From IMG/VR virus record IMGVR_UViG_3300042875_000419: a DNA stretch of 64,000 nucleotides; one strand, 5' to 3'. Origin of the DNA: a virus (Duplodnaviria; Heunggongvirae; Uroviricota; Caudoviricetes). Position 1 is the stretch's first letter. Each line of letters starts with the position of its first letter. Under the pieces are notes generated by a model. That model ran no database searches and was not told the origin of the DNA. It saw only the letters and a list, made by a program, of their open reading frames with translations. The translations under genes and the position numbers were made by a program. This document shows, piece by piece, positions 11,416 through 59,460 of the stretch.

Positions 11416-12792
11416 TTAGTATCCTAAAACCAATTTAAATATTTCCGAACCATCTGTGTTTCTTTGTACTGGTTCTCTATTTTCTAAGTAAGTTAAATAA
11501 CCTGAAAACGGTATAAAATCTGGTGTTTGTTGTTGAACAACAACTCTTGCTGTTCCCGTTGATGCGCCATAAATTAACGCACTATTATTGGCAACTCCCT
11601 GTGTATTTATTAGCCTTAAAGTATTGGGTGCAGAATCAAAACTTAAAACTGTTGCAGTAAATGTTGCTGAAGCCAATAAACCATTCGGAGATTGATACAC
11701 TGTTTCATCTGGCGTATATAAACCAAAACCTTGTGACATAACAAAATCGGTGGTCGTTTTGTAAATCTCCGCATTTGCTATACCGGTTGTAGTTCCGAAG
11801 TAAGCATATGGGTTTACAAGAAGCCCAAGTTGTCTGAAGTCAATATCGGTGGGTAATTTACCACCTTCTTCCTTGGTAAATCTTGCAGTCATCATAATAT
11901 GTCTAGTACCTAGTTCAGATATAGGATTATATGCATGTCCACCAATGGGTGATGCTGGCGCAATAGCTATGGCACCTGAACCTAAAGACGATGATATCGT
12001 TACGTTTGCATATGAATAATTTGATCCAGTATTTGCTACAACAATATCTGTTATAGAATTTGAAACTACTGTAGCATTTGCTGTTGCATAAAGCCCATCA
12101 CCAGTAACAGTGACAGTAATAGTAGCATTCGAAGGATCATATCCTGTTCCACCATTTGTTACATTAATTACATCGATACTACCGGAACCAGCAAACGTGG
12201 AAAATGGATTTGGTATGCGAGAGGTTATTGGAACTGGCATCCATGCATCATCCATAAACTTTAGTTTACTACCAGAAGTAATGGTGTACATGTATTTCCA
12301 TTTATAATCATCGGCACCTTGGAAAATCTGGTTTGCATTAAAAGTTCCTGGCTCGAAGTATGGTTCTGTTGTTGTAACTCCACCATTATTATTCCAAAGG
12401 CATTTAAAAACTTGGTCGAAACGATTTCTAACATAGAAACGTTTTAAAATAGTTCCGTTCGTGTCGAGTGCAAACATATCAACATCATCTCTATAATAAT
12501 CATAAACTTCTCCTGAAGTCCAGTCGATTCTTTCAACGACAGGAGACATATCATTAGATGTTATTTTTTTCGCAACAAACATATTTTTAAATGTTTCTTT
12601 TAAATACTTTTGATCCTGTGTAGGCGCAGGCGGTAAAGATTCTGTTGGCCAAGATTTCACACGGGATAGGAAACAATAAAAAGTGCCGAGTGCTTGGCCG
12701 GTTATTGCAACAGATGCAATAGGTGAATAATAAACGGCAGTAGTTTGATATGTGCCGTTTTGATATGTTACAATTCCATTATTTGCTGACAT
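11416..12792 (-). CDS. gp8: Baseplate wedge protein gp8-like (458 aa).
   Basis: Recalled similarity to T4 gp8 N-terminal region: SRVKSWPTESLPPAPTQD ... VVERIDWTSGEVYDYY aligns with FGRSEPWSSNENEVGFAPPYPTDS ... IPRRDWGDTRYPDPY. Position after gp7 matches T4 order. Confidence 0.55.
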   Translation of the reverse strand: MSANNGIVTYQNGTYQTTAVYYSPIASVAITGQALGTFYCFLSRVKSWPTESLPPAPTQDQKYLKETFKNMFVAKKITSNDMSPVVERIDWTSGEVYDYYRDDVDMFALDTNGTILKRFYVRNRFDQVFKCLWNNNGGVTTTEPYFEPGTFNANQIFQGADDYKWKYMYTITSGSKLKFMDDAWMPVPITSRIPNPFSTFAGSGSIDVINVTNGGTGYDPSNATITVTVTGDGLYATANATVVSNSITDIVVANTGSNYSYANVTISSSLGSGAIAIAPASPIGGHAYNPISELGTRHIMMTARFTKEEGGKLPTDIDFRQLGLLVNPYAYFGTTTGIANAEIYKTTTDFVMSQGFGLYTPDETVYQSPNGLLASATFTATVLSFDSAPNTLRLINTQGVANNSALIYGASTGTARVVVQQQTPDFIPFSGYLTYLENREPVQRNTDGSEIFKLVLGY

Positions 12793-32891: not shown

Positions 32892-33767
32892 TTATTCTTC
32901 GGCTAGCTTAGAGAAATAAGCCAAATCATCATCATCTTCGGCAATACCGGCATCCGCCATCACTGGCTTACGTGGCATTGCTTTAGCTTGTTCAACTGTA
33001 GTCTTAGCAACTACTGGTGAACCATCAAGGCCGAGAACCTTGTCTAGGCGAGCCTTCAACTCATCATAAGACTTAAAGTTTTCTGGCAACAGAAACTCTT
33101 TGAGTGAGTATTCTTTCTTCCAGATAGCTTCTAGCTTTGCATCGTCATTCAACAATGCAGATGGTGACTCAAATTCAGACTTATCATAGTTCTGATAACC
33201 CTCAACTTTACGAATCTTGAGTTTGAAGTTTGCACCTTCCCACATATCAAATGGGTTGAGTGGCTTTTCATCTTCGAAAGCAGGATTCATCGCTTCGTTA
33301 ATCTTATCAAAGATTTTCTTACCAAACTTGTACAGAAACACTTTACCTTGATTCTGAGGATTCTTAGAATCTTCAACAACGTAGATATTTGCAATGTAAG
33401 ACAGACGGCGCTTTTGTTTACGTGCAACTTCCTTGTTTGCTTCGATGCCAGAGTTCCACAACTGAGAGTTGTATTCAGAAACTGGATCTTTTTGATTCAA
33501 GGTTGTAAGAGAGTTTTCAATGTACCAGCCACCAGGACCCTGGAAACCGTGATTGAATACTTTTACCCACGGGAGTGCATCATCACCATCAACCGATGGC
33601 TGAGGCAAGAAACGAATAACTGCATAACCATTGCCGACTTTATCGACTTCTGGTTTCCAGAAATTGTCATCTTTGGTGGGAGTTTCGGCTGAATTGAGTT
33701 TTTCAATAGCCTTGGCGAGTTTGTCTAGGTTACTAGAACTGCTCTTGAGATTTGCGAATGAAGACAT
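32892..33767 (-). CDS. gp32: Single-stranded DNA-binding protein gp32. Start taken at internal Met 33767 with RBS AAGGAAAATACT.
   Basis: GNGYAVIRFLPQ...NHGFQGPGGWYIEN matches T4 gp32 GNGQAVIRFLPSK...NHGFKKNGKWYIET. Acidic C-terminal tail (EDDDDLAYF). Confidence 0.85.
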   Translation of the reverse strand: MSSFANLKSSSSNLDKLAKAIEKLNSAETPTKDDNFWKPEVDKVGNGYAVIRFLPQPSVDGDDALPWVKVFNHGFQGPGGWYIENSLTTLNQKDPVSEYNSQLWNSGIEANKEVARKQKRRLSYIANIYVVEDSKNPQNQGKVFLYKFGKKIFDKINEAMNPAFEDEKPLNPFDMWEGANFKLKIRKVEGYQNYDKSEFESPSALLNDDAKLEAIWKKEYSLKEFLLPENFKSYDELKARLDKVLGLDGSPVVAKTTVEQAKAMPRKPVMADAGIAEDDDDLAYFSKLAEE

Positions 33768-33849
33768 AGTATTTTCCTTGTATGACGTTGTATTAAATGT
33801 ATTTCGAATTATCCACATATTTCATAATGTATGAATTATATAGGCACAC

Positions 33850-34329
33850 TCAAAGATACATCTTGAGGATTGCGATGGTAGATTTGGCATCTGTGTGAAG
33901 AATACCAATACCGCCGGCTTTGTTCCAATCATCAATAACAGATTGAGTGTCATCGATGATTATGGAATTGGGTGTGGCGTACTTGTATTTCAGTGATTTA
34001 CCTGGAACAAGGTTTGCCTTATAGTGAATGTTGTGCTTGAGCAACCACATTTGTTTTTGTGGTGCAATCATTCCGTGATTTTCAGGTCGTGCAGTTGACG
34101 AAAGAATTTCTTTGTGTACATCCAACTCATGCAAAAACTGCAACAGTTCTTCCGCATCTGACATCAAATCAAGTGTGCTGAATTCTGCATCATCAATGAA
34201 CTTTTTAAAGTAACCATTGAATTCTTTATTGCTCCGTGTTTCCTCTGGTGTTACACGGAACTTTTCCTTGTAACGTTTCGAGAAATCGGCAATGACGCCA
34301 TCCATATCAATGTATATTGTATCAATCAT
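33850..34329 (-). CDS. HAD-family 5'(3')-deoxyribonucleotidase (159 aa).
   Basis: N-terminal IYIDMDGVIADF motif, characteristic of the 5'(3')-deoxyribonucleotidase HAD subfamily. Confidence 0.65.
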   Translation of the reverse strand: MIDTIYIDMDGVIADFSKRYKEKFRVTPEETRSNKEFNGYFKKFIDDAEFSTLDLMSDAEELLQFLHELDVHKEILSSTARPENHGMIAPQKQMWLLKHNIHYKANLVPGKSLKYKYATPNSIIIDDTQSVIDDWNKAGGIGILHTDAKSTIAILKMYL

Positions 34330-34934
34330 GTTGTGATCAGATTTAAGTTTTTCTTGAGTGTATCAAGCATTTTAGGCTTATCAAAATTTAGAAATGGTTT
34401 ATACTTCTCACAACTCTTTACGAATTCTGGAAAGATAATGTCATCTTCAATTTTTTTCACCCACATCGGCAAAAAGTTTAACAACTCATTTAAGATAATT
34501 AAAGTCTCTTTAGTGGTGTTTCCTTGCATATAAAGATTATACAACAAGGGGTACTGCCCGTCAACCACTTTCAGTAATTCTTCCGGATTATTTACCGAAT
34601 CAAACAGCCTGTGGAGGTCCTGTTCGAACACATAGGAAAGAGATTGTTGAGTTTTTTGCCACACCTTGTACTCAGATTCGGCATCCTCGGACAGGAGGTC
34701 ACCCACCCATATCTTCGGATTCACTAGCATATTGGAGACAAAGAAACCAAAGAGTTCATCACGCTTGTATTTTCGGGATAGTTTATAGAATTGAAACTTA
34801 TCCTTACGGAGCATGAATTGTTCTTTGGTTACATTTGTCTTACCAGAATACTTCACATAATCATATTTTGAAGTGAAATGTAGTTTCAATGCATGAAACA
34901 ACGCATATGCTTCAAACCCACCGGCTTCATTCAT
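34326..34934 (-). CDS. gp59: DNA helicase loader gp59 (202 aa).
   Basis: LKLHFTSKYDYVKY ... RKDKFQFYKLSRKYKRDEL matches T4 gp59 LMIKQHMNGKYDVIKYN ... RRDKYFFQKLSEKYKLKEL. Adjacent to gp32 as in T4. Confidence 0.75.
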   Translation of the reverse strand: MNEAGGFEAYALFHALKLHFTSKYDYVKYSGKTNVTKEQFMLRKDKFQFYKLSRKYKRDELFGFFVSNMLVNPKIWVGDLLSEDAESEYKVWQKTQQSLSYVFEQDLHRLFDSVNNPEELLKVVDGQYPLLYNLYMQGNTTKETLIILNELLNFLPMWVKKIEDDIIFPEFVKSCEKYKPFLNFDKPKMLDTLKKNLNLITT

Positions 34935-35182
34935 ATGAACAACTTATTCACTTTCTTAATCATATTTGCGGCTTGTGCTTCATCAGAAATTTTAGATTTC
35001 AGCGGTGTAGTAAGGAGTGTTGCCGCAATCTCCACTTCAAATCCGGTCTCCTGACAATGAAGTAGTACCGCATCCATATAGCCAATTCTCTTAATCTTTA
35101 CGATTTCTTCGATGATGGCCGAGAAATTCCGTTGCTCCTCTTTCGTAGCCATTATTTTTTGCCCATTGAATACGCAATACAA
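34931..35182 (-). CDS. Hypothetical small protein (83 aa).
   Basis: ORF with overlapping junctions in the minus operon. Confidence 0.35.
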   Translation of the reverse strand: MYCVFNGQKIMATKEEQRNFSAIIEEIVKIKRIGYMDAVLLHCQETGFEVEIAATLLTTPLKSKISDEAQAANMIKKVNKLFI

Positions 35183-35433
35183 ACTGCATTTGTATTTGTT
35201 TCATATGCACATTTCACTGAAATCGGATCAATTCCTTTTTGAATAGCCGATTCAATGTTCTTTGCCATGTTGTTTCGATCATTGATATTGTAAATTGTAA
35301 AAGCGGCAATAGAAGAACATATCGCTACTGTGATACAAATGATTACTGTGATAACTTCTTTATTCATCTTAGATGATTCCTTTGTTTCTGTCAATTTTGT
35401 CTTTGTTGCTTCTGTAAAAGATGTGTCTTCCAA
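35152..35433 (-). CDS. Small membrane-anchored protein. Likely start is the internal Met at ~35367, giving 72 aa.
   Basis: Hydrophobic segment VITVIICITVAICSSIAAFTIY after MNKE. The longer ORF would overlap the hydrolase gene. Confidence 0.35.
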   Translation of the reverse strand: MEDTSFTEATKTKLTETKESSKMNKEVITVIICITVAICSSIAAFTIYNINDRNNMAKNIESAIQKGIDPISVKCAYETNTNAVCIAYSMGKK

Positions 35434-35923
35434 TTTGCTCTATCCTTTTTAAATTCCATTGAGGATTCACGTAGTCTGCATGGTAATATGTTGCACCATT
35501 TGTAACGTCTTCATAACGTTCAAAATTGACAACCATATTGACAGCTAACTGTTGAATCTCATTATACAATGAAGTGCTTCTAATTGTCAAGCGATTATTG
35601 GTATGTTTGCTTTCACAATACCAAGAGAACTGACAAACACTACCGGTTTTTTGATAAACTACTCCGCAAATATCATCAGCATAGTTGCCAGACATGACTC
35701 TATTGAAGGTGACAAAAGCAACAGCTTTCTTACCTTTGAGAGGTTCATGTGCGGCTTCGAAATAAATATTGTCGGCAAGGCATGTTATTTGTTTTTGTGT
35801 TTCTCTGTCTAGAGAACTAAAACTGGCCTTGAATGGTAAATTGTATAAGTTTATATTTACCATTGACAACGTTATAATGACTGCGGAAAATAGTATGCTT
35901 AAAAGTATTGGTTTACTTTGCAT
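35369..35923 (-). CDS. SleB-like cell-wall hydrolase (Hydrolase_2 family) with N-terminal signal/TM segment. Candidate peptidoglycan-degrading lysis or entry enzyme.
   Basis: Motifs CLADNIYFEA, AVAFVTFNRV, ICGVVYQ...QFSW and ATYYHADYVNPQW are typical of the SleB/CwlJ hydrolase domain. Hydrophobic N-terminus. Confidence 0.6.
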   Translation of the reverse strand: MQSKPILLSILFSAVIITLSMVNINLYNLPFKASFSSLDRETQKQITCLADNIYFEAAHEPLKGKKAVAFVTFNRVMSGNYADDICGVVYQKTGSVCQFSWYCESKHTNNRLTIRSTSLYNEIQQLAVNMVVNFERYEDVTNGATYYHADYVNPQWNLKRIEQIGRHIFYRSNKDKIDRNKGII

Positions 35924-36461: not shown

Positions 36462-36588
36462 AGATGGCTATCAAGCAGCCATCAAAAAGCGACTTTCGTT
36501 TGCTTTTACTTTGATTTAGTTTTTACACCTACTCTGGTGAGTTGTCCACTTCTGTACTCTTGACCCAATCGATCCTGTGTCAGGCCCA

Positions 36589-36819
36589 TCATAAAGATTT
36601 TATTTTGGAAACGATATCATAAACTTTAGAGTATATTTCGGTTATATCATCTAACTGATTTTCAGTTACTGATTTATTCTGTTCTAGTTGAACTAGATCC
36701 TTGGCCAAGTTTTCTTGTAACTCTTTTAGTTTATCTGTATCATCCACATAAAATCCTTGTGGTGGACCTGGCGGGCACTGCCCCCGCGTCTTGAATCCGT
36801 TTCTAGTTGCTTCATACAA
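36589..36819 (-). CDS. Hypothetical small protein (76 aa).
   Basis: ORF only. Confidence 0.35.
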   Translation of the reverse strand: MYEATRNGFKTRGQCPPGPPQGFYVDDTDKLKELQENLAKDLVQLEQNKSVTENQLDDITEIYSKVYDIVSKIKSL

Positions 36820-36855
36820 CCATAACCTTTATTATAAAGGTTCTTTATTTAGTTG

Positions 36856-53223: not shown

Positions 53224-53389
53224 GAGCAGGATAAACCGCTTGAAATGTCATTCCGTTAGTATTAGAATAACGGAGTTTCAAGAATGCACGAACCTTGGAA
53301 ACTGATTCAAAATAACCAGTAGCTTCAATGAATGAACCGTCAAAATAAACAGAGTATTGTTTCATAAAAAAGTCCTTGTTGTGTTTCAA
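53198..53389 (-). CDS. Hypothetical protein (63 aa).
   Basis: ORF directly downstream of promoter copy 53398-53425. Confidence 0.35.
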   Translation of the reverse strand: MKHNKDFFMKQYSVYFDGSFIEATGYFESVSKVRAFLKLRYSNTNGMTFQAVYPALEQTVYEV

Positions 53390-53397
53390 TAGAGAGA

Positions 53398-53425
53398 ATT
53401 ATACAGGTTCCGTAGAGAATGGCAA
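53398..53425 (-). promoter_or_regulatory. Sigma70-type promoter module copy (TTGCCA-N16-TATAAT, minus strand).
   Basis: Reverse complement reads TTGCCATTCTCTACGGAACCTGTATAAT. The CCGGTCAAGTATTG element lies nearby at 53451-53464. Confidence 0.5.
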
Positions 53426-53588
53426 CCTACTAGAAAAGTTCTCCATCCGTCCGGTCAAGTATTGAGAAATAAGAATTTGAATAAATGGTAAAATATGGGA
53501 ATTATAAAGATTGTCCACATGAATACAAAAAGAAAAATGAAAACCGCTTTAAGTATATTAAGTATAAAGCCAAAAAAATCAAACATAA

Positions 53589-53849
53589 TTACCGCTTATA
53601 ATGAACAGGGCGCTCATAACGACCATCAGAATCCCGATAGAGAGAAACATAATGACCGTGCTTTGAACCATCATCAAAAGTATATGAGAAAGAAGAATCG
53701 TAAGAGAGCGGAGGGAAGTTAAGTTCCCAAGATTCCAATAATCCTTCTGATTCTAATGCAGAATTCAGAGTGGGAAAATAGTTTTGTTTTGAAACTTTAT
53801 ACATTGAATAAATCTCCATACATTTCTTCATCAAACGAATCAAAATCAT
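53589..53849 (-). CDS. Hypothetical protein (86 aa).
   Basis: ORF. Preferred over the overlapping plus ORF 53495..53722. Confidence 0.35.
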   Translation of the reverse strand: MILIRLMKKCMEIYSMYKVSKQNYFPTLNSALESEGLLESWELNFPPLSYDSSFSYTFDDGSKHGHYVSLYRDSDGRYERPVHYKR

Positions 53850-54039
53850 TCCGAATCCATTCGATGGTGTATCCGTTCAGTGCATAGTTATCAGCCATAG
53901 CCTGGAGACGGCGGAGGGCTTGTTCAGCATTCAGACCCATGCTTGCCATTAGGCTCAGGTTGCTCCAGTGAGCAAAGTTATTGGAGTCCTTATGTGCGGA
54001 GACTTGAATGAATTGTTTGGGTGTGTTTGTTTGTGTCAT
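53797..54039 (-). CDS. Hypothetical protein (80 aa). First gene downstream of the DnaA-box/promoter region.
   Basis: ATG at 54039 lies 7 nt downstream of the TATAAT at 54047-54052. Confidence 0.4.
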   Translation of the reverse strand: MTQTNTPKQFIQVSAHKDSNNFAHWSNLSLMASMGLNAEQALRRLQAMADNYALNGYTIEWIRNDFDSFDEEMYGDLFNV

Positions 54040-54046
54040 GGATGGT

Positions 54047-54074
54047 ATTATAGCGGTACTGGTAGGAATGGCAA
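54047..54074 (-). promoter_or_regulatory. Sigma70-type promoter module copy (TTGCCA-N16-TATAAT, minus strand) with the DnaA-box array 45-90 bp upstream.
   Basis: Reverse complement reads TTGCCATTCCTACCAGTACCGCTATAATACCATCCATG. Confidence 0.55.
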
Positions 54075-54118
54075 TGGAATATTTTGCGGAAAACTTCGTC
54101 TGTTGTATAAAAGAGACT

Positions 54119-54161
54119 GTGGATAAGTGTGTGGATAAGTTGTGGATAAGTTGTGGATATC
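54119..54161. promoter_or_regulatory. Array of four co-oriented DnaA boxes with 11-12 bp phasing. Three are perfect TGTGGATAA (i.e. TTATCCACA); the fourth is TGTGGATAT.
   Basis: ctgTGTGGATAAgtgTGTGGATAAgtTGTGGATAAgtTGTGGATATc, read directly from the sequence. Confidence 0.6.
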
Positions 54162-54485
54162 TTTGAGGACCTTAATAACTGACCAGTCAGTCAGTAGGTC
54201 GCTGGATGTGTCGCGGTGTGTCGGAAGTGTTGGGTTGCTATTTAGTCTTAGTTGCTGGCTGCCAACGCCTGAAAATTTCACAGAGTGTCTCAGAGGTGAC
54301 AGCACGTTTCCGCACGTTCCAATGGGTTCCAGTGGGTTCCAGCACGGTTTGGAATGTTTTGCTCTGTGTGGGTCTCAGAATGTCTCAGAGTGGTGCTGGA
54401 TGCCCATTGGAAAACCATCAGGCAGCCTCTACGTCCACCCCCAGTCTTGCTGTTCGAACCAATGGATCCATTGTACTCTAAAAAA

Positions 54486-54518
54486 GACCACCTGGCAACC
54501 ACCAGGTGTCTCATCTAC
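54486..54518 (-). terminator. Rho-independent terminator (7-bp stem cacctgg/ccaggtg, loop caacca, T-run on the minus strand) ending the minus early operon of the GC-rich island.
   Basis: aaaaaagaccacctggcaaccaccaggtg, 7 nt downstream of the stop at 54525. Confidence 0.6.
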
Positions 54519-54524
54519 GCAACA

Positions 54525-54746
54525 TCACTCCTCTTCGGAGAATCCTTCAATCAGCACTATTTGGTCCTCATAATAGTTCCGTTCCTCCTCCATGCACAGG
54601 TTGCCCTCGACCTCGAACACCAGGTCCGTGGCTGTCTTTTCGTCACATCCAGTGGAGGTCATAACGAATTGAATAATGTCCTCAAACGTATCACCATTGG
54701 TGATGCACGATTCGATATCGATAATCAAGTCTTTAAATTTGCTCAT
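54525..54746 (-). CDS. Small acidic protein (73 aa).
   Basis: ORF in the GC-rich island. Confidence 0.4.
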   Translation of the reverse strand: MSKFKDLIIDIESCITNGDTFEDIIQFVMTSTGCDEKTATDLVFEVEGNLCMEEERNYYEDQIVLIEGFSEEE

Positions 54747-54870
54747 TAGTCGCTTTCATTTTGTGTGTGGTGCGGGCGGTGAATGTAATATCAGGAATTT
54801 TATGCTCTCTCCGAGCCAACCAATTCACCATATACTTCCAACCAAATGCTTGAGTGTTTGTCATAATCAT
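54733..54870 (-). CDS. Small protein (45 aa) with AAAGGA RBS. The track ORF start at 54930 was rejected.
   Basis: ctataAAGGAatgattATG. The longer ORF overlaps the ATPase gene. Confidence 0.3.
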   Translation of the reverse strand: MIMTNTQAFGWKYMVNWLARREHKIPDITFTARTTHKMKATNEQI

Positions 54871-54886
54871 TCCTTTATAGTAAAAA

Positions 54887-55768
54887 TCAACCGCAGATGG
54901 TGTATTCTGCAAGGTCTTTCCACTTGGCACCAGCAGACTTGCGGATTTTAGTGGTCTGGATGAGTGTACGGAGTGACAACTCTTTCACCTCATCTTGGAG
55001 GTTGTCAATCAGGTCCAGTGCATCGGACTTTTCTGTCTTCGAATACTCAGGCATAAACTCTGGGAGGGACACCAGGTGGCGCATACGCTCCACTTTTTGC
55101 TCCGTTGTCATTGTCAGGTCAACAGCCATCGAACGGGTGATGATGGCTTGGTCCATCGAATCAGAGGACAGGTTAGAGATAAACACCACCCGGCCTTTGA
55201 ATTCAAAGGATTGTGGGAGTTCGTCATCCTTCATGTCGGCACGCCATGAGATGACACGGCGGGAGTAGGAGTCCAGAGCACCTTTGAGCAGGTTCAGAGA
55301 CACTGGATCCTTCAGCACCGAGTCGCAGTCGTCAAAAACAACCACGCCGTCCTTGTTTTCATACAGTGTACGGTACAGGCCCTTTGGAGTGGAGTAGCCC
55401 TTGATAACACGGTAGGACTTGGTGGTGTTGATTTTGCCACCGACCTCGAATTCATCCAGGAGGGTGACATCCTTCATGCCGGCATCATTCAGTGCCTTGG
55501 TGACGGTATGGGACTTGCCGAGACCACCGGGACCAGATACAACCACCGAGGACTGGTCACCTTTCACCAACATGGCGACCATGTCGGAGACAAAGCCGAA
55601 CCGCTGGTTGATGGTGAAGCGGGACTCCTTGACATTGACAGGAGCACCACCGGTGGCACCTGTAGCCTTGCGGATCACATAGTCCATGTGTTCCTTTTTG
55701 GCACGCTTGACCACCTTGCCATTGATGTTGGCAACGTATTTACCACCGACAAACTTCACTTCAATCAT
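54887..55768 (-). CDS. P-loop NTPase (AAA+/RecA-like core, 294 aa from Met 55768), possibly replication-associated.
   Basis: Walker A VVVSGPGGLGKSHTV, Walker B VVVFDDCD, sensor-like VVFISNL. The true start is inferred because promoter copy 55838-55866 lies inside the longer track ORF. RBS GAAAGGAAAA. Confidence 0.5.
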   Translation of the reverse strand: MIEVKFVGGKYVANINGKVVKRAKKEHMDYVIRKATGATGGAPVNVKESRFTINQRFGFVSDMVAMLVKGDQSSVVVSGPGGLGKSHTVTKALNDAGMKDVTLLDEFEVGGKINTTKSYRVIKGYSTPKGLYRTLYENKDGVVVFDDCDSVLKDPVSLNLLKGALDSYSRRVISWRADMKDDELPQSFEFKGRVVFISNLSSDSMDQAIITRSMAVDLTMTTEQKVERMRHLVSLPEFMPEYSKTEKSDALDLIDNLQDEVKELSLRTLIQTTKIRKSAGAKWKDLAEYTICG

Positions 55769-55837
55769 AATTTTCCTTTCAATTGCAATACCATGTTGAA
55801 AAACACCACCGGGAGAGGTGCTTTTGAATATGGTATC

Positions 55838-55866
55838 GATTATACCAGAACCAGCAGGTTCTGGCA
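55838..55866 (-). promoter_or_regulatory. Sigma70-type promoter module copy (TTGCCA-N17-TATAAT, minus).
   Basis: Reverse complement reads TTGCCAGAACCTGCTGGTTCTGGTATAAT, adjacent to CCGGTCAAGTATTGG. Confidence 0.55.
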
Positions 55867-55887
55867 ACCAATACTTGACCGGACAGG

Positions 55888-56175
55888 TCAACAATCAGCA
55901 TCAAAATCCGCCCACTCTTGGGCTTCGTCCGGCTGACCGTCATCCTCATCCTCGGTCTCCATCTCATCCTCGGTGAGACCTTCCACGAAAACGTCTTCCT
56001 CGGTCAAGGAATCCACGTAGTCGTTAAAACCGCACCGATAGGCTACCGGGTCGACCTCACGCAGGACCTCGGAAGCGGAATAGGTCATTCCGCACAGTTC
56101 CACCGGACCTTCACAGTCGTCCAGCATCTCATCAAACCATGCATGGGCGGTGCGCTCAGATATTAAACGGGACAT
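55888..56175 (-). CDS. Early protein with a strongly acidic C-terminal tail (95 aa).
   Basis: C-terminus EDEMETEDEDDGQPDEAQEWADFDADC. Promoter copy immediately upstream. Confidence 0.45.
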   Translation of the reverse strand: MSRLISERTAHAWFDEMLDDCEGPVELCGMTYSASEVLREVDPVAYRCGFNDYVDSLTEEDVFVEGLTEDEMETEDEDDGQPDEAQEWADFDADC

Positions 56176-56207
56176 TTTCTTTCCTTTTCTTTCACAATAT
56201 GGATTGG

Positions 56208-56235
56208 ATTATACAGGTTCCGGTAGTATTGTCAA
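56208..56235 (-). promoter_or_regulatory. Sigma70 consensus promoter copy (TTGACA-N16-TATAAT, minus).
   Basis: Reverse complement reads TTGACAATACTACCGGAACCTGTATAAT, preceded by CCGGTCAAGTATTGG. Confidence 0.6.
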
Positions 56236-56255
56236 CCAATACTTGACCGGAATGG

Positions 56256-56468
56256 TCAACTATCAAATTCGCAGGACTGGTCCAGGTACAGGCTCAGTTC
56301 CTCGGCTTGGTTCAGGATTCGAGCCACTTCCATGGCCTCATCCTCACATTGGAACCGTTCTACGGACTCGCCAGTGTGGACACCGTTGGACAATGGGGAC
56401 CAGCGGATCACATGGAAGTCCATGGTTTTGTCGTGGTGTTCTACAGTGTAGGTTTTTGTGTTCATCAT
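56256..56468 (-). CDS. Small protein (71 aa from the MM start).
   Basis: ATG 7 nt downstream of the -10 of promoter copy 56475-56502. Confidence 0.35.
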   Translation of the reverse strand: MMNTKTYTVEHHDKTMDFHVIRWSPLSNGVHTGESVERFQCEDEAMEVARILNQAEELSLYLDQSCEFDS

Positions 56469-56474
56469 GTCTTG

Positions 56475-56502
56475 GATTCTACAGGTTCCAGCAGGTTTGG
56501 CA
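56475..56502 (-). promoter_or_regulatory. Promoter module copy (TTGCCA-N16-TAGAAT, minus).
   Basis: Reverse complement reads TTGCCAAACCTGCTGGAACCTGTAGAAT. Confidence 0.45.
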
Positions 56503-56596
56503 ACCATTTTGGATATACTTGACCGGAGTGCTGGGTTATTATTATGACGCCCAGCCTCCACGTCCACCCCGCCTTCCGCTTCGAATCATGGTACCA

Positions 56597-56624
56597 ATTA
56601 TACCAGAACCAGCAGGGAAGGCAA
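56597..56624 (-). promoter_or_regulatory. Promoter module copy (TTGCCT-N16-TATAAT, minus), tandem with the previous copy.
   Basis: Reverse complement reads TTGCCTTCCCTGCTGGTTCTGGTATAAT. Confidence 0.45.
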
Positions 56625-56630
56625 GAGATA

Positions 56631-56655
56631 ACCCAGCCCGTTGCTGGGTTATTAG
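56631..56655 (-). terminator. Hairpin aacccagc-ccgtt-gctgggtt directly after the stop of the acidic protein gene. Putative terminator.
   Basis: 8-bp inverted repeat seen in the sequence. Weak U-tract. Confidence 0.35.
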
Positions 56656-56656
56656 A

Positions 56657-56893
56657 TTAGAACGAATCGATTATTTCCTGAATATCGTCAAAATTCTCAG
56701 AAATAAGAGAACTTTCGTATTCATCGTCTTCTTCATTGTAATCATAATATATCTCGAAGACCGGGGTTTCTAATACTTCTTCATCAATTGGGTGAACATA
56801 GTGTTCAATATAGTATGCAACCTGAACATTGTCAGAATTGAATACAGAATACTCATTACATTCCACACTTGAATACGTTTGTACTACTTTCAT
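56657..56893 (-). CDS. Highly acidic small protein (78 aa).
   Basis: D/E/Y-rich (EEVLETPVFEIYYDYNEEDDEYESSLISENFDDIQEIIDSF). Confidence 0.45.
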   Translation of the reverse strand: MKVVQTYSSVECNEYSVFNSDNVQVAYYIEHYVHPIDEEVLETPVFEIYYDYNEEDDEYESSLISENFDDIQEIIDSF

Positions 56894-56924
56894 TTTTCAC
56901 TTTCGTTTCGTTTACAATGATGTT

Positions 56925-56952
56925 ATTATATCATAGCAGGCCAGAATGGCAA
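56925..56952 (-). promoter_or_regulatory. Promoter module copy (TTGCCA-N16-TATAAT, minus) for the acidic protein gene.
   Basis: Reverse complement reads TTGCCATTCTGGCCTGCTATGATATAAT. Confidence 0.5.
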
Positions 56953-56992
56953 TATAGCACAATAGTTCTCCATTCTTCCGGTCAACTATTGG

Positions 56993-57020
56993 TTGCCATT
57001 CTCGCTGGTTCTGGTACAAT
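56993..57020 (+). promoter_or_regulatory. Promoter module copy (TTGCCA-N16-TACAAT, plus), first of four plus-strand copies. Divergent from copy 56925-56952.
   Basis: CCGGTCAACTATTGG-TTGCCATTCTCGCTGGTTCTGGTACAAT-CCATTCCATG. Confidence 0.55.
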
Positions 57021-57027
57021 CCATTCC

Positions 57028-57228
57028 ATGATAAAATCAATTCAACCAACCGACCGCAAGGTCCAAGCCCAATACCTGCTGGACGGTGTATTGGTTACCA
57101 TTTGCAAGCCTGCCCGCCCCCGTAGGTCGGAACGGACTTGGTCGGCTGGTGCCAAGTATTCGGTCGCCAACCTTGGAGCCAAGGCTGCCACCCTTCGGAA
57201 TGTTGGTCTCTCCCATGCCAAAGGTTGA
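57028..57228 (+). CDS. Small basic protein (66 aa). Its ATG is 7 nt downstream of the -10, so the mRNA may be leaderless.
   Basis: Internal Met of track ORF 56869..57228. Fits exactly between promoter copies. Confidence 0.35.
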   Translation: MIKSIQPTDRKVQAQYLLDGVLVTICKPARPRRSERTWSAGAKYSVANLGAKAATLRNVGLSHAKG

Positions 57229-57256
57229 CCAATCCGGTCAAGTATCCAAAGGATGG

Positions 57257-57284
57257 TTGCCATTCTCGCTGGTTCTGGTACAAT
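57257..57284 (+). promoter_or_regulatory. Promoter module copy (TTGCCA-N16-TACAAT, plus).
   Basis: CCGGTCAAGTATCC...TTGCCATTCTCGCTGGTTCTGGTACAAT-CCATTCCATA. Confidence 0.55.
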
Positions 57285-57315
57285 CCATTCCATAGTAAAT
57301 TGAAAAGGTTGCAAA

Positions 57316-57558
57316 ATGTACCAGCCCCATATAGTCCTCCGGCACTGCCGCTCCTACCTCCGGAAAGCCCGTGGCGGATTCTACGCCGAGGTGTACCATG
57401 GTCAAGAGGCTATTTTCCAGGTGTATGCCGATGGAACGGTGCTTTGGTTGCATCCTTCCCAAGGCTTGGTCCGACCTGAAAATGTAATGGGTGGGCGGCT
57501 CCTCTCCCATGTACGGTACCAAGGTCGGTCCCTCCTGCGGTATCATGGCGTACAATAA
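57316..57558 (+). CDS. Small basic protein (80 aa).
   Basis: ORF downstream of the promoter copy, with leader containing aaaagg. Confidence 0.35.
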   Translation: MYQPHIVLRHCRSYLRKARGGFYAEVYHGQEAIFQVYADGTVLWLHPSQGLVRPENVMGGRLLSHVRYQGRSLLRYHGVQ

Positions 57559-57590
57559 CCCAGCCAGCCGGTCAACTATTCCACGGATGG

Positions 57591-57618
57591 TTGCCATTTC
57601 CTCTGGTTCTGGTATAAT
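57591..57618 (+). promoter_or_regulatory. Promoter module copy (TTGCCA-N16-TATAAT, plus).
   Basis: CCGGTCAACTATTCC...TTGCCATTTCCTCTGGTTCTGGTATAAT. Confidence 0.55.
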
Positions 57619-57648
57619 CCAACCATCAAATCAAGCAAAGGTCAAAAA

Positions 57649-58398
57649 ATGAATTTACTCTCCACTGGTAACCCTAAGGTCCTCAAAGGCCTGGCTCAGG
57701 GTTACAATACCTACATCCTGCACCTCGCTCCAGCCGACCTGTCCGGTTTTGAGACCTGCGCCAAACGGACCAAAGGTTGCACGGCTGCCTGCCTGAACCT
57801 TGCTGGCCGTGGCGGTATGTTCAAAAAAGGTGAAACCACCAACATTATCCAGCAGGCTCGAATCCGCAAAACCCAAATGTTTTTCGAGGCTCGCACCGGT
57901 TTTATGGAATGGCTGGTCAAGGATATTGAATTGGCTATTAAACAATCGGCTAAAATCAATATGGTTCCAGTGATTCGCCTTAATGGCACTTCGGACCTAG
58001 CCTTTGAAAAGTATGCCGCCATCCGTAATGGCGTGGAATATAAAAACATTTTCATGGCATTCCCTGAAATTCAATTCTACGATTATACCAAGATTCTCGG
58101 ACGTAAAATTGCCGATTATCCCAATTATCACCTGACATTCTCAGCCGCCGATGGTAATGATTCGGACGTTGAAAAGGCTATTGCCCAAGGTTATAATGTA
58201 GCCGTGGTGTTTGGTATTAAAAAGACCCTCCCAATGCCGGCTGATTATCTGAGTATGCCAGTATTTAATGGCGATGAGTCGGACCTCCGTTTTCTGGATC
58301 CAAAAGGCTCCGTTATCGGCTTATATGCCAAAGGCAAAGCCAAAAAAGATACCACTGGTTTTGTAAAGTATCCCGCCATTATGATGGCATCCGTTTAA
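57649..58398 (+). CDS. Three-Cys-motif protein (249 aa). Possibly the phage Gp37/Gp68 (DUF5131) family.
   Basis: N-terminal cluster TCAKRTKGCTAAC (C-x6-C-x3-C). The family assignment is from memory and is not verified. Confidence 0.35.
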   Translation: MNLLSTGNPKVLKGLAQGYNTYILHLAPADLSGFETCAKRTKGCTAACLNLAGRGGMFKKGETTNIIQQARIRKTQMFFEARTGFMEWLVKDIELAIKQSAKINMVPVIRLNGTSDLAFEKYAAIRNGVEYKNIFMAFPEIQFYDYTKILGRKIADYPNYHLTFSAADGNDSDVEKAIAQGYNVAVVFGIKKTLPMPADYLSMPVFNGDESDLRFLDPKGSVIGLYAKGKAKKDTTGFVKYPAIMMASV

Positions 58399-58414
58399 AC
58401 TGAAAGGAAACATT

Positions 58415-58636
58415 ATGTCCAAAATCAAACTCCCATTCGAATGCATGGTTGGAACCGAAAATGAGGTGGTAACCAATCCATTCTCTGGAGAATCAATTAC
58501 ATTATCTCCAGAGGCTGTGGCAGTATATGATACCATTATGGGTTGCCAAATGGTCGGTGATTATAAGAGAATGCAAAAGGGGCTGGATTGGTTTCGCCGT
58601 CATTATGCCCGAGAATATATGGTTCTCCTGGATTGA
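58415..58636 (+). CDS. Hypothetical protein (73 aa).
   Basis: ORF 16 nt after the preceding gene, with AGGAAAC RBS. Confidence 0.4.
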   Translation: MSKIKLPFECMVGTENEVVTNPFSGESITLSPEAVAVYDTIMGCQMVGDYKRMQKGLDWFRRHYAREYMVLLD

Positions 58637-58669
58637 CCCTCCCTCTGGCTGGAGAACTAAGGTACTAGG

Positions 58670-58698
58670 TTGCCATTTTCACGCCCATCCGCCATAAT
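58670..58698 (+). promoter_or_regulatory. Promoter module copy (TTGCCA-N17-CATAAT, plus).
   Basis: TTGCCATTTTCACGCCCATCCGCCATAAT-CCATTCCATG. Confidence 0.45.
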
Positions 58699-58729
58699 CC
58701 ATTCCATGTTGAATTTGAAAGGAAACAAA

Positions 58730-58927
58730 ATGACAAATCAAGACTTGGCCAAGGCACTGGTGGCTGCCATTCAGGACCGCCAATTCGCCCGTGGCGAGGA
58801 ACTCCACGCCGCCAACTCTTACACCGTTGGCTACCTTGAGGGTCTCATTGGTACACTCTGCCACCTCAGCCCCAAGGCTAAAAAAGAGGTTATGAGTACC
58901 TTGGTTTACATTAACGCAAACAAGTAA
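58730..58927 (+). CDS. Small protein (65 aa) with GAAAGGAAAC RBS. An in-frame ATG also sits right after the -10.
   Basis: MTNQDLAKAL... Internal start of track ORF 58670..58927. Confidence 0.4.
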   Translation: MTNQDLAKALVAAIQDRQFARGEELHAANSYTVGYLEGLIGTLCHLSPKAKKEVMSTLVYINANK

Positions 58928-58938
58928 GGAGTAATGAG

Positions 58939-59040
58939 TATGTTTTCAGAAAACAAGTGGGAAGACCTTGCATTCAAGGTGGTGCTGGTGTTGGGTGTGG
59001 TGGTTGTGTTGCTGGACCTGGTGTACTGGAGACCAGGTTA
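58939..59040 (+). CDS. Tiny single-TM peptide (33 aa).
   Basis: Hand translation MFSENKWEDLAFKVVLVLGVVVVLLDLVYWRPG. Immediately precedes the operon terminator. Confidence 0.25.
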
Positions 59041-59065
59041 AAGGTTGGACACCAGTTGGTGGGAA

Positions 59066-59088
59066 GGGCGCTTCGGCGTCCTTTTTTT
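59066..59088 (+). terminator. Rho-independent terminator. gggcgc-UUCG-gcgtcc hairpin followed by TTTTTTT. Ends the plus-strand early operon.
   Basis: aagggcgcttcggcgtcctttttttgg. Confidence 0.75.
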
Positions 59089-59250
59089 GGCTTGGCGCCT
59101 GCTTAAAAATCTGGACCACTGTACCTTAAAGGTAATACTATGTAAGTAATTTTGTGCTATGGCCCAAACTCTTTTTTCCCTAAATTTATTTTCTGGGGCC
59201 GGAAGCACATTTTCAAGTTTTCTTCTCCTCTCGGATTTTCTCCGGACCCC

Positions 59251-59460
59251 CTACACGGTTTTCGAATTTTCCCACGCCCAATGGACTACGCACCAGTCTT
59301 CGATGCACTTCTCTTTTGATATATCGTCACCTTTACCATTCTCAATCATCTTAGTTGACCAGTACGTATAGTAGGACTTCAGTATCTGTTCCTCTGTGAA
59401 TGTCTCTACAACATCTTGCCCAAACTCTCCGGGGAAGGTGATACTCCATCTTTTAGTCAT
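59251..59460 (-). CDS. Hypothetical protein (69 aa).
   Basis: ORF only. Confidence 0.4.
   Translation of the reverse strand: MTKRWSITFPGEFGQDVVETFTEEQILKSYYTYWSTKMIENGKGDDISKEKCIEDWCVVHWAWENSKTV

Follow-up and report, generated by a model that had tools for sequence, protein, structure and literature searches.

The question raised by this locus is why a stretch of about 5 kb (54100-59100) is so much richer in G+C than the DNA around it. The window, i.e., the whole 64,000-nt stretch of DNA that was analysed, is part of a ~166-kb genome of an uncultured aquatic T4-like myovirus from the Melnitz/pelagimyophage-related group, and the initial annotation had offered two readings of the island: horizontal acquisition of a host-takeover module from a GC-richer source, or strong selection acting on codon usage and on the promoters. 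The compositional break itself was confirmed by sliding-window analysis. The GC content was 48.0% for the island in comparison to 38.5% for the rest of the window, and its maximum 5-kb value (0.479 at 54251) lies ~6.6 SD over the mean of the 5-kb windows outside the region (mean 0.380, SD 0.015, maximum 0.415). The GC content per kilobase from 54 to 59 kb was 0.456, 0.515, 0.447, 0.516, and 0.449, in comparison to 0.30 to 0.45 elsewhere. The island is uneven, with an AT-rich hole (0.32) at 56650-56950, and its right edge is gradual, with a GC content of 0.43 to 0.45 out to ~59.7 kb. Non-coding DNA is enriched as well, with a GC content of 0.43 in the island in comparison to 0.36 overall, and with 0.51 in a conserved 321-nt stretch. 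The single other GC-rich kilobase of the window, 1-1000 (0.514), has no connection with the island, its minus strand encoding a collagen-like Gly-Pro-Ile repeat.

The left edge is marked by a DnaA-box array on the minus strand (54118-54160), in which three perfect boxes (TTATCCACA) and one with a single mismatch (ATATCCACA) are spaced by 11 to 12 bp; two to four perfect boxes were found at the equivalent place in related contigs L007, L009-L012, L016, L018, L020, and L023. The array sits ~45 to 90 bp upstream of the putative early promoter P54074 (54047-54074, minus strand; TTGCCA-N16-TATAAT), and the ATG of an 80-aa gene (53797-54039, minus strand) follows the -10 hexamer of this promoter by exactly 7 nt, a leaderless-type start of which the geometry is kept in L010 and L011. 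Beside the array lies a conserved non-coding stretch (54161-54470, minus strand, 51% GC) with 90% to 96% identity in L007, L008, and L012, which contains TGGAAC four times at ~10-bp spacing (54300-54346) and CTCTGAGACA twice. No convincing ORF was found in this stretch, its substitutions showed no 3-nt periodicity, its RNA folding was not significant (z -0.4 and -1.2), and an Rfam search with it returned no match; the stretch is a candidate for an array of protein-binding or origin-type sites, which promoter P54498 would transcribe. This promoter is part of a composite, PeSL-like terminator and promoter (54470-54510, minus strand), where a hairpin (54489-54508) and a T-run terminate the leftward unit (-17 kcal/mol, z -3.7), and the 3' arm of the same hairpin doubles as the -35 hexamer (TTGCCA) of P54498, the -10 hexamer being TACAAT. 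The composite element is also kept in L010 and L011.

The leftward unit, all on the minus strand, encodes a 73-aa acidic protein (54525-54746; pI 4.1, GC3 0.61) with orthologues of 78% to 95% identity in relatives, a 45-aa basic protein (54733-54870; GC3 0.43), a 293-aa P-loop ATPase (54887-55768; GC3 0.65) with the motif GPGGLGKS, which matches phrog_1250 and is homologous to T4 NrdC.10, a 95-aa very acidic protein of phrog_9294 (55888-56175; 31 D+E, pI 4.1, GC3 0.60), and a 70-aa acidic protein (56256-56468; GC3 0.65). Promoter cassettes were found at 55839-55891 (the palindrome TTGACC-N5-GGTCAA, then TTGCCA-N17-TATAAT) and at 56208-56259 (the palindrome, then TTGACA-N16-TATAAT, matching 12/12 consensus positions), and tandem promoter copies (56476-56624) at 56476-56503 and 56597-56624. 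The ATG of the 70-aa gene lies 7 nt past the -10 hexamer of the first copy, again a leaderless-type start, and this '-10 + 7 nt + ATGATGA' arrangement is common to L010, L011, L014, L021, and L022. An AT-rich inserted cassette (56625-56955) completes the unit, with a promoter (56925-56952), a 78-aa acidic gene (56657-56893; GC3 0.30), and a hairpin (56630-56652); only the near-identical contigs L001-L006 share it, and it is missing from L007, L010, and L011.

Back-to-back promoters at 56952 (minus) and 56993 (plus) form the divergence point of the two sets of transcription units. On the plus strand, the first promoter (56993-57020) is followed by a 66-aa basic ORF with a leaderless-type start (57028-57228; GC3 0.55), which is kept in L007 (92%) and L014 (65%), and by an inserted cassette (57229-57648) bounded inside promoter repeats, consisting of a promoter (57257-57284) with 92% identity to the copy at 56990, an 80-aa basic ORFan (57316-57558; GC3 0.60), and another promoter (57591-57618). 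Next come a 249-aa protein of the Pfam GP88 family (57649-58398; E 3.6e-37, GC3 0.49), in which C37, C44, and C48 are invariant and for which a weak structure model gave no fold match, a 73-aa protein gene (58415-58636; GC3 0.41), and a segment (58670-59041) with a promoter copy (TTGCCA-N17-CATAAT), a 65-aa gene (58730-58927; GC3 0.62), and a 33-aa hydrophobic ORF (58940-59041). An intrinsic terminator (59064-59088), with a GGGCGC-UUCG-GCGUCC hairpin (59066-59088) followed by seven T's (-14.7 kcal/mol), closes the rightward unit. The anatomy is in agreement with the initial annotation, which had proposed the DnaA-box region and the UUCG-tetraloop terminator as bounds, and divergent units encoding small acidic proteins (pI 4.1 to 4.6), a P-loop NTPase, and a three-Cys-motif protein as contents.

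The dense promoter copies which had been claimed were also recovered, with 23 sigma-70-like sites in 6 kb in comparison to 9.3 ± 2.8 in shuffled sequences, and ten of the 23 are copies of one long repeat family. Gene gain and loss between close relatives is delimited by these promoter repeats, and the island is a T4-type hyperplastic region, with small genes each behind a repeated PeSL-like promoter cassette. From promoter type and gene content we infer that the region is early and devoted to host takeover. The proposed selection on promoters finds support in the conserved GC-rich spacer (CTGGTTCTGG) of the repeated promoters. Dense consensus-promoter blocks coincide with GC-rich blocks elsewhere, in L025 (21 promoters in 9 kb), L014, L031, and L029, and promoter-proximal genes are without GC3 gain in L013, L018, L020, L021, and L022.

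At the codon level the excess is concentrated at third positions. The GC3 was 0.60 to 0.65 in island genes, with GP88 and two other genes (0.41 to 0.43) below this level, in comparison to 0.31 ± 0.07 in backbone genes (n = 31), while GC2 is the same in both (0.37) and GC1 is moderately higher in the island (0.55 to 0.67). Together with the intergenic GC content, these values fit a genome of ~50% GC, as expected of a module acquired from a GC-richer donor, either the host or another phage, and still carrying donor composition, and the ATPase and GP88 had their best matches among cultured phages in jumbo phages of Ralstonia, Xanthomonas, and Stenotrophomonas (50% to 52% aa identity). However, orthologues of the NrdC.10-like ATPase were found in 25 related viral contigs with GC3 values anywhere from 0.23 to 0.65, GP88 orthologues reach distant relatives, where they lie 1 to 5 kb from the ATPase, and close relatives keep the order of these anchor genes and carry the same 5-kb island with the same composition, which the initial annotation had named beforehand as telling against import. 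In tetranucleotide usage, the correlation to the remainder of the window does fall to 0.67 to 0.75, but the fall begins at 48.7 kb, ahead of the island, and the dinucleotide signature, corrected for base composition, is inside the range of other 5-kb windows. No integrase or other mobility gene, tRNA, or flanking repeat was found at the island, its promoters are of the same family as those elsewhere in the early region, and the one demonstrable recent insertion (56625-56955) is AT-rich. Polarised synonymous singletons (AT-to-GC/GC-to-AT) numbered 11/13 for the window, 13/11 for L007, and 24/22 for L011, and L010 was the only decaying lineage among the four (15/43, p = 0.0003); as the two directions are in balance in the other three, the composition is maintained and shows no amelioration trend. 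The implied equilibrium GC3 was 0.59 for the island in comparison to 0.44 for the flanks (difference from flank dynamics, p = 0.005). Acquisition from a GC-richer donor is thus already largely refuted, and we regard it as highly improbable.

The GC3 follows a gradient, from ~0.26 in baseplate and tail genes through ~0.36 in other early-region genes to ~0.6 in the island. AGA is not used in the island (0/49; fraction 0.00 in comparison to 0.51 in late genes), and the fractions of TTA (0.04 in comparison to 0.31), ACA (0.19 in comparison to 0.59), GCA (0.11 in comparison to 0.49), and TCA (0.07 in comparison to 0.36) are all reduced, while GCC reaches 0.57, ACC 0.58, TCC 0.51, and CTG 0.43. At four-fold sites, A drops from 0.36-0.43 to 0.11-0.15, T only from 0.37 to 0.24-0.28, and C reaches 0.40. 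The avoidance of A-ending, retention of T-ending, and preference for C-ending codons were seen in minus- and plus-strand genes alike, so the bias tracks the coding strand and not the DNA strand. NNU and NNC codons are read by common GNN tRNAs, and NNA codons require UNN tRNAs. One part of the codon-specific pattern has a cause other than tRNA supply, as GCG and AGC are scarce because this lineage specifically avoids the palindromes CGCG, GCGC, and AGCT. The extra G+C of the island is mainly a maintained shift in codon choice, which supports the suggestion of strong selection on codon usage.

The same asymmetry bears on GC-biased gene conversion or another recombination-linked mutational bias, by which the cassette repeats would act as a hotspot and heteroduplex repair would lift GC at weakly constrained sites. 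The raised non-coding GC and the promoter-repeat-bounded indels, which show frequent recombination in the island, are consistent with such a process, and exchange by way of PeSLs is on record for T4-type phages (PMC2839356, PMC4122927). A strand-symmetric process predicts no coding-strand asymmetry, whereas A3 is far under T3 on both DNA strands; moreover, GC3 (0.6) far exceeds intergenic GC, T4-type phages recombine across the whole genome, and other cassette-bearing early regions (41-54 kb) reach a GC3 of only ~0.36, which makes this account quite doubtful. Selection for GC at the DNA level, whether to evade AT-seeking nucleoid silencers (H-NS-type) or spurious AT-rich promoter-like sites or to tune the duplex stability of an origin, would use third positions merely as the places where GC can be added. 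It is consistent with the enrichment of non-coding DNA, most of all in the 321-nt stretch beside the DnaA-box array, with the overlap of GC-rich and host-RNA-polymerase promoter blocks in several lineages, and with the small very acidic proteins, a kind which includes DNA mimics and may do so here. Such selection predicts an equal loss of A and T, but on both strands the loss of A-ending codons far outweighs that of T-ending ones, an AT-rich cassette with its own promoter (56625-56955) sits in mid-island, and the silencer is hypothetical; we consider this explanation unlikely.

The most likely explanation, to which we give an even chance, is that the island is a native immediate-early hyperplastic region, of which the GC excess is kept by selection for genes that can be translated with host tRNAs alone right after infection; that the genes are early, that translational selection is the driver, and that phage tRNAs play any role are what we infer here. 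Its approximately twelve small genes, in two divergent groups and nearly each behind its own strong sigma-70-type promoter cassette, would be translated in the first minutes by the unmodified host apparatus, ahead of phage-supplied tRNAs or takeover functions, and selection would thus hold them on codons which the host decodes well. The cassettes double as recombination points where promoter-plus-gene units are gained and lost. The genes follow another synonymous code than the rest of the genome, with A-ending codons for UNN-anticodon tRNAs (AGA, UUA, ACA, GCA, UCA) almost gone and C- or U-ending codons and CUG in their place, while later genes would be free to drift with the AT-rich bias of the lineage. 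A-ending codons are those read by the eight T4 tRNAs, and Cowe and Sharp in 1991 reportedly tied codon usage in T4 to when the genes are expressed. Codon usage often differs between early and late phage genes (PMC5683454), and marine low-GC T4-like phages supply AT-anticodon tRNAs, by which they deal with hosts of higher GC (PMC3152331). Translation of phage proteins in the cyanophage Syn9, also T4-like, is limited by UUA, AGA, and ACA codons when host tRNA-Leu(TAA) is low (PMC11726456), and Melnitz, a relative, has two tRNA-Arg(TCT) genes (PMC9004378). Against codon selection stand the raised non-coding GC, which is beyond its reach, the lower GC3 of GP88, despite its orthologues even in distant relatives, and of two other island genes, and the missing GC3 gain of promoter-proximal genes in some lineages. 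Baseplate and tail genes showed no comparable shift, the major capsid gene lying outside the window, and tRNA genes were found neither in the window nor in most related loci. Over 50 kb of Caulobacter phage Cr30 (T4-like, 38% GC; host 67% GC) no such early region was found, so T4-like phages whose hosts are GC-rich do not show the effect as a rule.

Among known systems, the host-takeover module of the Bacillus phage SPO1, which sits in the terminal redundancy, likewise packs many small, functionally uncharacterized early genes closely together, with dense strong host-type promoters and terminators; it has no sequence relationship to the island, and to our knowledge no compositional shift has been reported for it. 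Horizontally acquired islands or morons, such as the GC-rich patches of Cr30, share the local departure from backbone G+C, but these patches have sharp edges and a host-like composition (GC3 up to 0.70), with a xylanase gene in one, whereas the island is gradual on one side, holds lineage-typical phage genes and promoters, is conserved among relatives, and stands at compositional equilibrium. The PeSL hyperplastic regions of T4-type phages (RB49/phi1, PST/T4, nt-1/KVP40; PMC2839356, PMC4122927) resemble the island in their repeated near-consensus sigma-70 promoters directly upstream of small ORFans with a Shine-Dalgarno sequence, in stem-loops upstream of or overlapping the -35 hexamer, and in promoter-plus-gene indels between close relatives with junctions within the repeats. 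In the described PeSLs an AT-rich tract precedes the -35 hexamer, in comparison to the palindrome and the GC-rich spacer in the island, where the starts behind several cassettes are of the leaderless type and not led by a Shine-Dalgarno sequence; no compositional island has been reported for PeSL regions, and G+C content is unmentioned in PMC2839356, while GC3 is doubled in the island genes. The island also resembles the expression-time codon usage of phages (T4; PMC5683454; GC3 landscapes, PMC2266997), in which synonymous usage differs by temporal class and late genes lean on A-ending codons such as phage tRNAs read, although in lambda the GC3-rich, host-adapted class is that of structural and not early genes. 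It differs from these known shifts in an amplitude which makes a visible 10-point GC island (GC3 0.6 in comparison to 0.3), in its confinement to ~5 kb, and in its variation from zero to +30 GC3 points among related lineages.

The GC-rich break that the initial annotation placed at 54100-59100, hereafter the island, proved to be real, with a G+C content of 48.0% in comparison to 38.5% in the remaining window. From 54001 onward the successive 1-kb values are 0.456, 0.515, 0.447, 0.516, and 0.449, with other kilobases at 0.30 to 0.45, and the 5-kb windows outside the island have a mean of 0.380 (sd 0.015, maximum 0.415) in comparison to an island peak of 0.479. The island is uneven, with an AT-rich hole at 56650-56950 (G+C 0.32) and a right edge that tapers to about 59.7 kb. 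Both of the borders described previously were also recovered: on the left three perfect DnaA boxes and one near-perfect box at 54118-54160, and on the right, at 59066-59088, a hairpin with a UUCG tetraloop and a run of seven T's behind it (-14.7 kcal/mol). The sole other GC-rich kilobase, 1-1000 (0.514), was considered as a second island and rejected, because it consists of GGTCCAATA-type triplets that code on the minus strand for a collagen-like Gly-Pro-Ile repeat. This long Gly-Pro-Ile/Gln triplet repeat at 1-1030 (-) is unrelated to the island and probably belongs to a tail-fibre-like gene which extends past the window end.

The G+C excess of the island sits mostly at synonymous sites. The G+C content of third codon positions (GC3) is 0.60 to 0.65 in island genes, with 0.65 in the P-loop ATPase gene, in comparison to 0.31 +/- 0.07 in 31 backbone genes, while GC2 is equal in island and backbone (0.37) and GC1 is moderately raised in the island. 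The GC3 values form a gradient from about 0.26 in baseplate and tail genes through about 0.36 in other leftward early-region genes to about 0.6 in the island, and the intergenic G+C is much less raised (0.43 in the island in comparison to 0.36). In terms of individual codons, AGA is used for 0 of 49 Arg codons in the island in comparison to a fraction of 0.51 in late genes, and the corresponding fractions are 0.04 and 0.31 for TTA, 0.19 and 0.59 for ACA, 0.11 and 0.49 for GCA, and 0.07 and 0.36 for TCA, while GCC, ACC, TCC, and CTG rise to 0.43 to 0.58 in the island. At four-fold sites A drops three- to four-fold, from 0.36-0.43 to 0.11-0.15, whereas T drops only from 0.37 to 0.24-0.28, and C rises to 0.40. 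This asymmetry between A and T is the same in island genes of both strands, and the bias thus follows the coding strand. A pressure that does not distinguish the strands, such as mutation bias, biased gene conversion, or selection on duplex GC, would deplete A as much as T. Selection for GC at the DNA level, which would remove A and T equally, is therefore unlikely given that the loss of A is much greater than the loss of T, and a recombination-linked bias, of which biased gene conversion makes the same symmetric prediction, is quite improbable. We conclude that the island is most likely maintained by selection on the coding strand. Transfer RNAs with GNN anticodons read both NNU and NNC codons while NNA codons require UNN tRNAs, and the loss of A-ending codons is the pattern expected from limitation of UNN tRNAs.

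A part of the codon pattern has another origin. In the island GCG (0.01), AGC (0.05), and GGG (0.01) are not raised despite their G/C ending, and two of the related contigs, L025 and L031, prefer AGC. These values together with the differing Ser/Ala codon preferences of other lineages were considered as a sign of host-specific tRNA pools, an interpretation we withdrew because lineage-specific avoidance of AGCT, CGCG, and GCGC explains that part. CGCG occurs 4 times in 64 kb in comparison to about 30 to 90 expected, and AGCT 59 times in comparison to about 114 to 207 expected, with none in 53322-59460; the counts of GATC and CTAG in the window are low too. The close relatives L007 and L011 share the depletion of both CGCG and AGCT. 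It is not seen in L025, in L014, or within the island of the close relative L010, where 8 CGCG sites were counted. This palindrome avoidance presumably reflects lineage-specific pressure from restriction enzymes, and it leaves the difference between A-ending and T-ending codons unexplained. Avoidance of AGCT at Lys/Glu/Gln-Leu codon pairs was not significant for the only 7 such pairs. As a MazF-type check, ACA was counted in the two non-codon frames, where it was somewhat low (20 in comparison to 31.5 expected, and 5 in comparison to 12.0), and as a codon, where no depletion was found given the position-specific base composition (12 in comparison to 10.2 expected).

T4-type proteins are matched by the large ORFs in the window, including baseplate wedge, hub, and tail-tube-cap proteins, a gp2-like DNA end protector, a gp32-like single-strand DNA-binding protein, and CobS, and in near-identical contigs the sequence immediately past the window's right end encodes RNase H, ribonucleotide reductase, and a SegE-type endonuclease. 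By the baseplate wedge protein (30% to 42% identity), the best cultured relatives are Methylophilales phage Melnitz, the Pelagibacter myophages HTVC008M and Mosig, and cyanomyoviruses. Rfam RF04321 identified a permuted two-piece tmRNA gene at 36471-36821 (-) (91 bits in comparison to a gathering score of 47), for which ARAGORN gave no call; this trait is already known from Melnitz-like and pelagimyophage genomes (PMC9004378). A near-identical island is carried by a 166-kb viral contig, and orthologues of the ATPase with 52% to 100% identity are present in 24 further viral contigs. Taken together, the T4-type ORFs, the tmRNA, the relatives, and the 166-kb contig identify the window as part of an uncultured aquatic T4-like myovirus. 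Neither the window nor 16 of 18 related loci yielded a tRNA gene; the tRNA-Met and tRNA-Asp(GTC) of the distant relative L025 are the only ones among these 18 loci, and they lie at 779-856 and 3566-3640 within a promoter-dense GC-rich early block. The contig scan for a host returned a single contig that had been binned into a Bacteroidetes MAG (La Plata). We judged this hit to be uninformative, since the promoters resemble sigma-70 promoters of the proteobacterial/cyanobacterial type.

Of the two readings offered by the initial annotation, horizontal acquisition from a GC-richer source would agree with the deviating composition (48.0% in comparison to 38.5% G+C), but it is not supported, in view of the orthologues in relatives, the same island in close relatives, balanced substitutions, and the lack of a mobility signature. 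An ATPase orthologue is present in 25 of 25 related loci, and the three-Cys protein gene, GP88, lies 1 to 5 kb from it in the distant relatives L021, L022, and L024-L027. The close relatives do carry the same 5-kb island. It is found in L007-L012 and L028, and its distribution is thus not the patchy one expected of an acquired island. The dinucleotide signature, corrected for base composition, is no outlier, with an island delta* of 78 inside the range of other 5-kb windows (23 to 160); the tetranucleotide correlation drops to 0.67-0.75, and this drop starts at 48.7 kb. Neither megablast nor blastn of the island DNA retrieved a useful match from 50,697 phage records. The search for mobility signatures found no tRNA, no integrase- or transposase-family hit among island proteins, and no border repeats, the repeats in the island being internal promoter copies. 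Synonymous singletons were polarised among the window, L007, L010, and L011, and the AT-to-GC and GC-to-AT changes in the island were balanced in the window (11/13), L007 (13/11), and L011 (24/22), so that amelioration is absent in three of four lineages. The implied equilibrium GC3 is 0.59 for the island and 0.44 for the flanks, whose dynamics would predict far more GC-to-AT changes in the island (p = 0.005). L010 (island at 7000-12000) alone is losing GC (15/43, p = 0.0003), consistent with relaxed or changed selection, perhaps via a host shift; the GC3 of its acidic 95-aa gene is 0.46, and CGCG sites have been regained. On these grounds horizontal acquisition of the island is very unlikely, and the evidence favours a native island.

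The other reading, strong selection on promoters and codon usage, is supported, in that the excess sits mostly at third codon positions and the avoidance of A-ending codons is specific to the coding strand. The amplitude varies among relatives: the GC3 of the ATPase orthologue is 0.23 in L022, 0.35 to 0.39 in L013, L016, and L021, 0.48 to 0.53 in L014, L018, L020, L029, and L030, and 0.57 to 0.65 in the window, its close relatives, L024-L027, and L031. In other lineages, too, GC-rich stretches overlie dense consensus promoters, which again favours a native island: in L025, 21 perfect TTGACA-N17-TATAAT sites lie within 9 kb of 44% to 53% GC and end where GC drops to about 40%. Promoter-proximal genes are richer in GC3 in the window, L010, L025, L029, and L031, whereas L013, L018, and L020-L022 lack this effect. 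The only piece that looks like a recent import is AT-rich, a cassette at 56625-56955 in mid-island with its own promoter, a 78-aa acidic gene (GC3 0.30), and a hairpin, which is missing in L007, L010, and L011 and has its sole distant homologue (41%) in the AT-rich L022.

The products named in the initial annotation were all recovered. The leftward (-) set encodes acidic proteins of 78, 70, and 73 aa, a very acidic one of 95 aa, the 293-aa P-loop ATPase (54887-55768), and a 45-aa protein, and ends in a hairpin plus T-run at 54481-54510 (-); the rightward (+) set encodes basic ORFs of 66 and 80 aa, GP88 (57649-58398), and proteins of 73, 65, and 33 aa, and ends at the 59066-59088 terminator (+). 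The P-loop NTPase has a GPGGLGKS Walker A motif and matches phrog_1250 (E 1.5e-61, residues 9-291). By tblastn it shares about 30% identity with nrdC.10-annotated genes of T4-type phages over 96% to 98% of its length, with its best match in a Ralstonia jumbo phage (50% identity), and no solved-structure relative was found. The three-Cys-motif protein is Pfam GP88 (PF17338), with E 3.6e-37 and a score of 128.8 bits in comparison to a gathering cut-off of 24.4 over residues 3-239 of 249. Metagenomes contain more than 8000 of its homologues, and several Pelagibacter podophages encode relatives close to the left end of their genomes. GP88 had no PDB sequence match and no NCBIfam or PADLOC hit; AlphaFold, given a shallow alignment, produced a weak model (pLDDT 64), and with this weak model as query Foldseek against the PDB returned nothing below E 0.07 and vague beta/alpha-barrel hits only. 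Profile searches gave no informative family for the remaining island products.

The promoter copies are indeed dense, as a scan found 23 sigma-70-like sites in comparison to 9.3 +/- 2.8 in shuffles. TTG(C/A)CA-N16-17-TA(T/C/G)AAT occurs in 10 copies between 54047 and 57618 and once more at 58670, and the 29-69-nt repeat family around these promoters consists of copies of one predicted promoter cassette, with the consensus TTG(C/A)CA, a 16-17-nt spacer with terminal CTGGTTCTGG, TA(T/C/G)AAT, and CCAnnCCAT, often preceded 5' by CCGGTCAA(G/C)TAT or the full palindrome TTGACC-N5-GGTCAA. By the first base of the -35 hexamer, leftward (-) cassettes lie at 56952, 56624, 56503, 56235, 55867, 54498, and 54074, and rightward (+) ones at 56993, 57257, 57591, and 58670, so that the leftward and rightward sets diverge from a back-to-back promoter pair separated by about 40 bp. 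The small genes (33 to 95 aa), mostly without family match, each lie 7 to 60 nt 3' of a promoter copy. At 54039 (-), 56468 (-), 57028 (+), and 56589 (-) an ATG stands exactly 7 nt past the -10 without a Shine-Dalgarno sequence, which implies that these genes would have leaderless mRNAs; the arrangement -10 + 7 nt + ATGATGA is kept in L010, L011, L014, L021, and L022, down to 67% to 69% ATPase identity. We infer early timing of the island from the host-type promoters and the T4-like layout.

In a four-way alignment of 56150-57700 with L007, L010, and L011, cassette gain and loss was evident: the window has an extra promoter with the 80-aa ORF (57229-57648) and another with the AT-rich 78-aa gene (56625-56955), the 66-aa ORF is missing in L010 and L011, and L010 has another extra gene. 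All indel junctions fall within promoter repeats, suggesting that the cassettes act as recombination points. The promoter-early stem-loop (PeSL) cassettes of T4-type hyperplastic regions behave alike, with gains and losses whose junctions lie in repeats (PMC2839356, PMC4122927). A clear hairpin at 54489-54508 (-17 kcal/mol) overlaps a -35, and this predicted terminator, whose 3' arm doubles as the -35 hexamer, is a PeSL-type arrangement; another clear hairpin, 56630-56652, adjoins the promoter at 56597-56624. The likeness in stem-loops is partial, because the TTGACC-N5-GGTCAA palindromes 5' of three promoters are weak hairpins (-7 kcal/mol, z -1.6), and several cassette copies keep a single half-site. 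The architecture of the island is that of a T4-type hyperplastic early region with PeSL-like cassettes, an already-known kind.

The DnaA boxes at 54118-54160 form a tandem array with 11-12 bp spacing directly upstream of an early promoter. Arrays of 2 to 4 perfect boxes are present in L007, L009-L012, L016, L018, L020, and L023, and in relatives of 72% to 75% identity they again lie 50 to 110 nt upstream of a promoter. Adjoining the array is a non-coding stretch of about 300 nt (54161-54470), 90% to 96% conserved, in which TGGAAC occurs four times, spaced by about 10 bp, and CTCTGAGACA twice; the G+C of the conserved 321-nt non-coding stretch is 0.51. A structured RNA as the cause of the high G+C of this stretch was rejected (no Rfam hit even at E <= 1, folding z -0.4 and -1.2), and so was a hidden coding gene, since substitutions lack 3-nt periodicity. 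The DnaA-box/TGGAAC array could act as a DnaA-dependent origin or have a regulatory role. We know of no description of such an element in T4-like phages.

Our best reading of what maintains the island, to which we give about an even chance, is selection for translation on the unaided host tRNA pool. Island genes would be translated on the host's own tRNAs in the first minutes post infection, while later genes would follow the AT-rich bias of the lineage, possibly helped by phage tRNAs. Several observations stand against this translational reading, as non-coding G+C is also raised in the island, the GC3 of GP88 is only 0.49, the effect is not universal (compare Caulobacter phage Cr30), and baseplate and tail genes have no such shift. 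The eight tRNAs of T4 read A-ending codons. Codon usage of early and late genes differs in many phages (PMC5683454), T4-like marine phages of low GC supply their host with AT-anticodon tRNAs (PMC3152331), and Melnitz has two tRNA-Arg(TCT) genes (PMC9004378). In the T4-like cyanophage Syn9, UUA, AGA, and ACA are enriched in phage proteins left untranslated when host tRNA-Leu(TAA) is scarce (PMC11726456), and these three are among the codons that the island avoids most.

A broader and rather doubtful reading is that a large and abundant clade of uncultured, aquatic T4-like phages has evolved a self-sufficient 'first-minutes' module, recoded off A-ending codons, partly leaderless, and coupled to the DnaA-box/TGGAAC array. 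Avoiding A-ending codons would allow translation in hosts poor in, or depleting, UNN-anticodon tRNAs, the recoding would counter tRNA-limitation resistance as in Syn9/Synechococcus, and the DnaA boxes and TGGAAC iterons would serve as a DnaA-dependent origin or a sensor of the host's growth state for early transcription. To our knowledge, neither the recoded module, nor leaderless early expression, nor the DnaA/TGGAAC coupling has been described for T4-like phages. While hyperplastic PeSL-like regions and codon differences between early and late genes are already known, we know of no description of their combination as a compositional island with doubled GC3, at equilibrium, and with an amplitude from nil to +30 points among relatives. 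If the translational reading is true, the early-region GC3 shift (none to +30 points) could indicate a phage-host tRNA mismatch from sequence alone, and the reading would tie in with recent experiments indicating that the success of a T4-like marine phage can depend on tRNA supply. The clade is abundant in metagenomes, as judged by the more than 8000 GP88 homologues, and the practical gain is modest until the host is known.

GC-rich patches in phage genomes are routinely taken as foreign DNA, and the present case calls for caution in island-calling, as the GC-rich patch appears native and maintained while the sole likely recent import is AT-rich. Caulobacter phage Cr30, which is T4-like with 38% GC and infects a host of 67% GC, has, unlike the window, no broad early-region GC shift; its GC-rich patches at 8182-9040 and 33642-35875 are sharply bounded, with GC3 of 0.5 to 0.7 and a xylanase gene in one of them, and they look like host-derived insertions.
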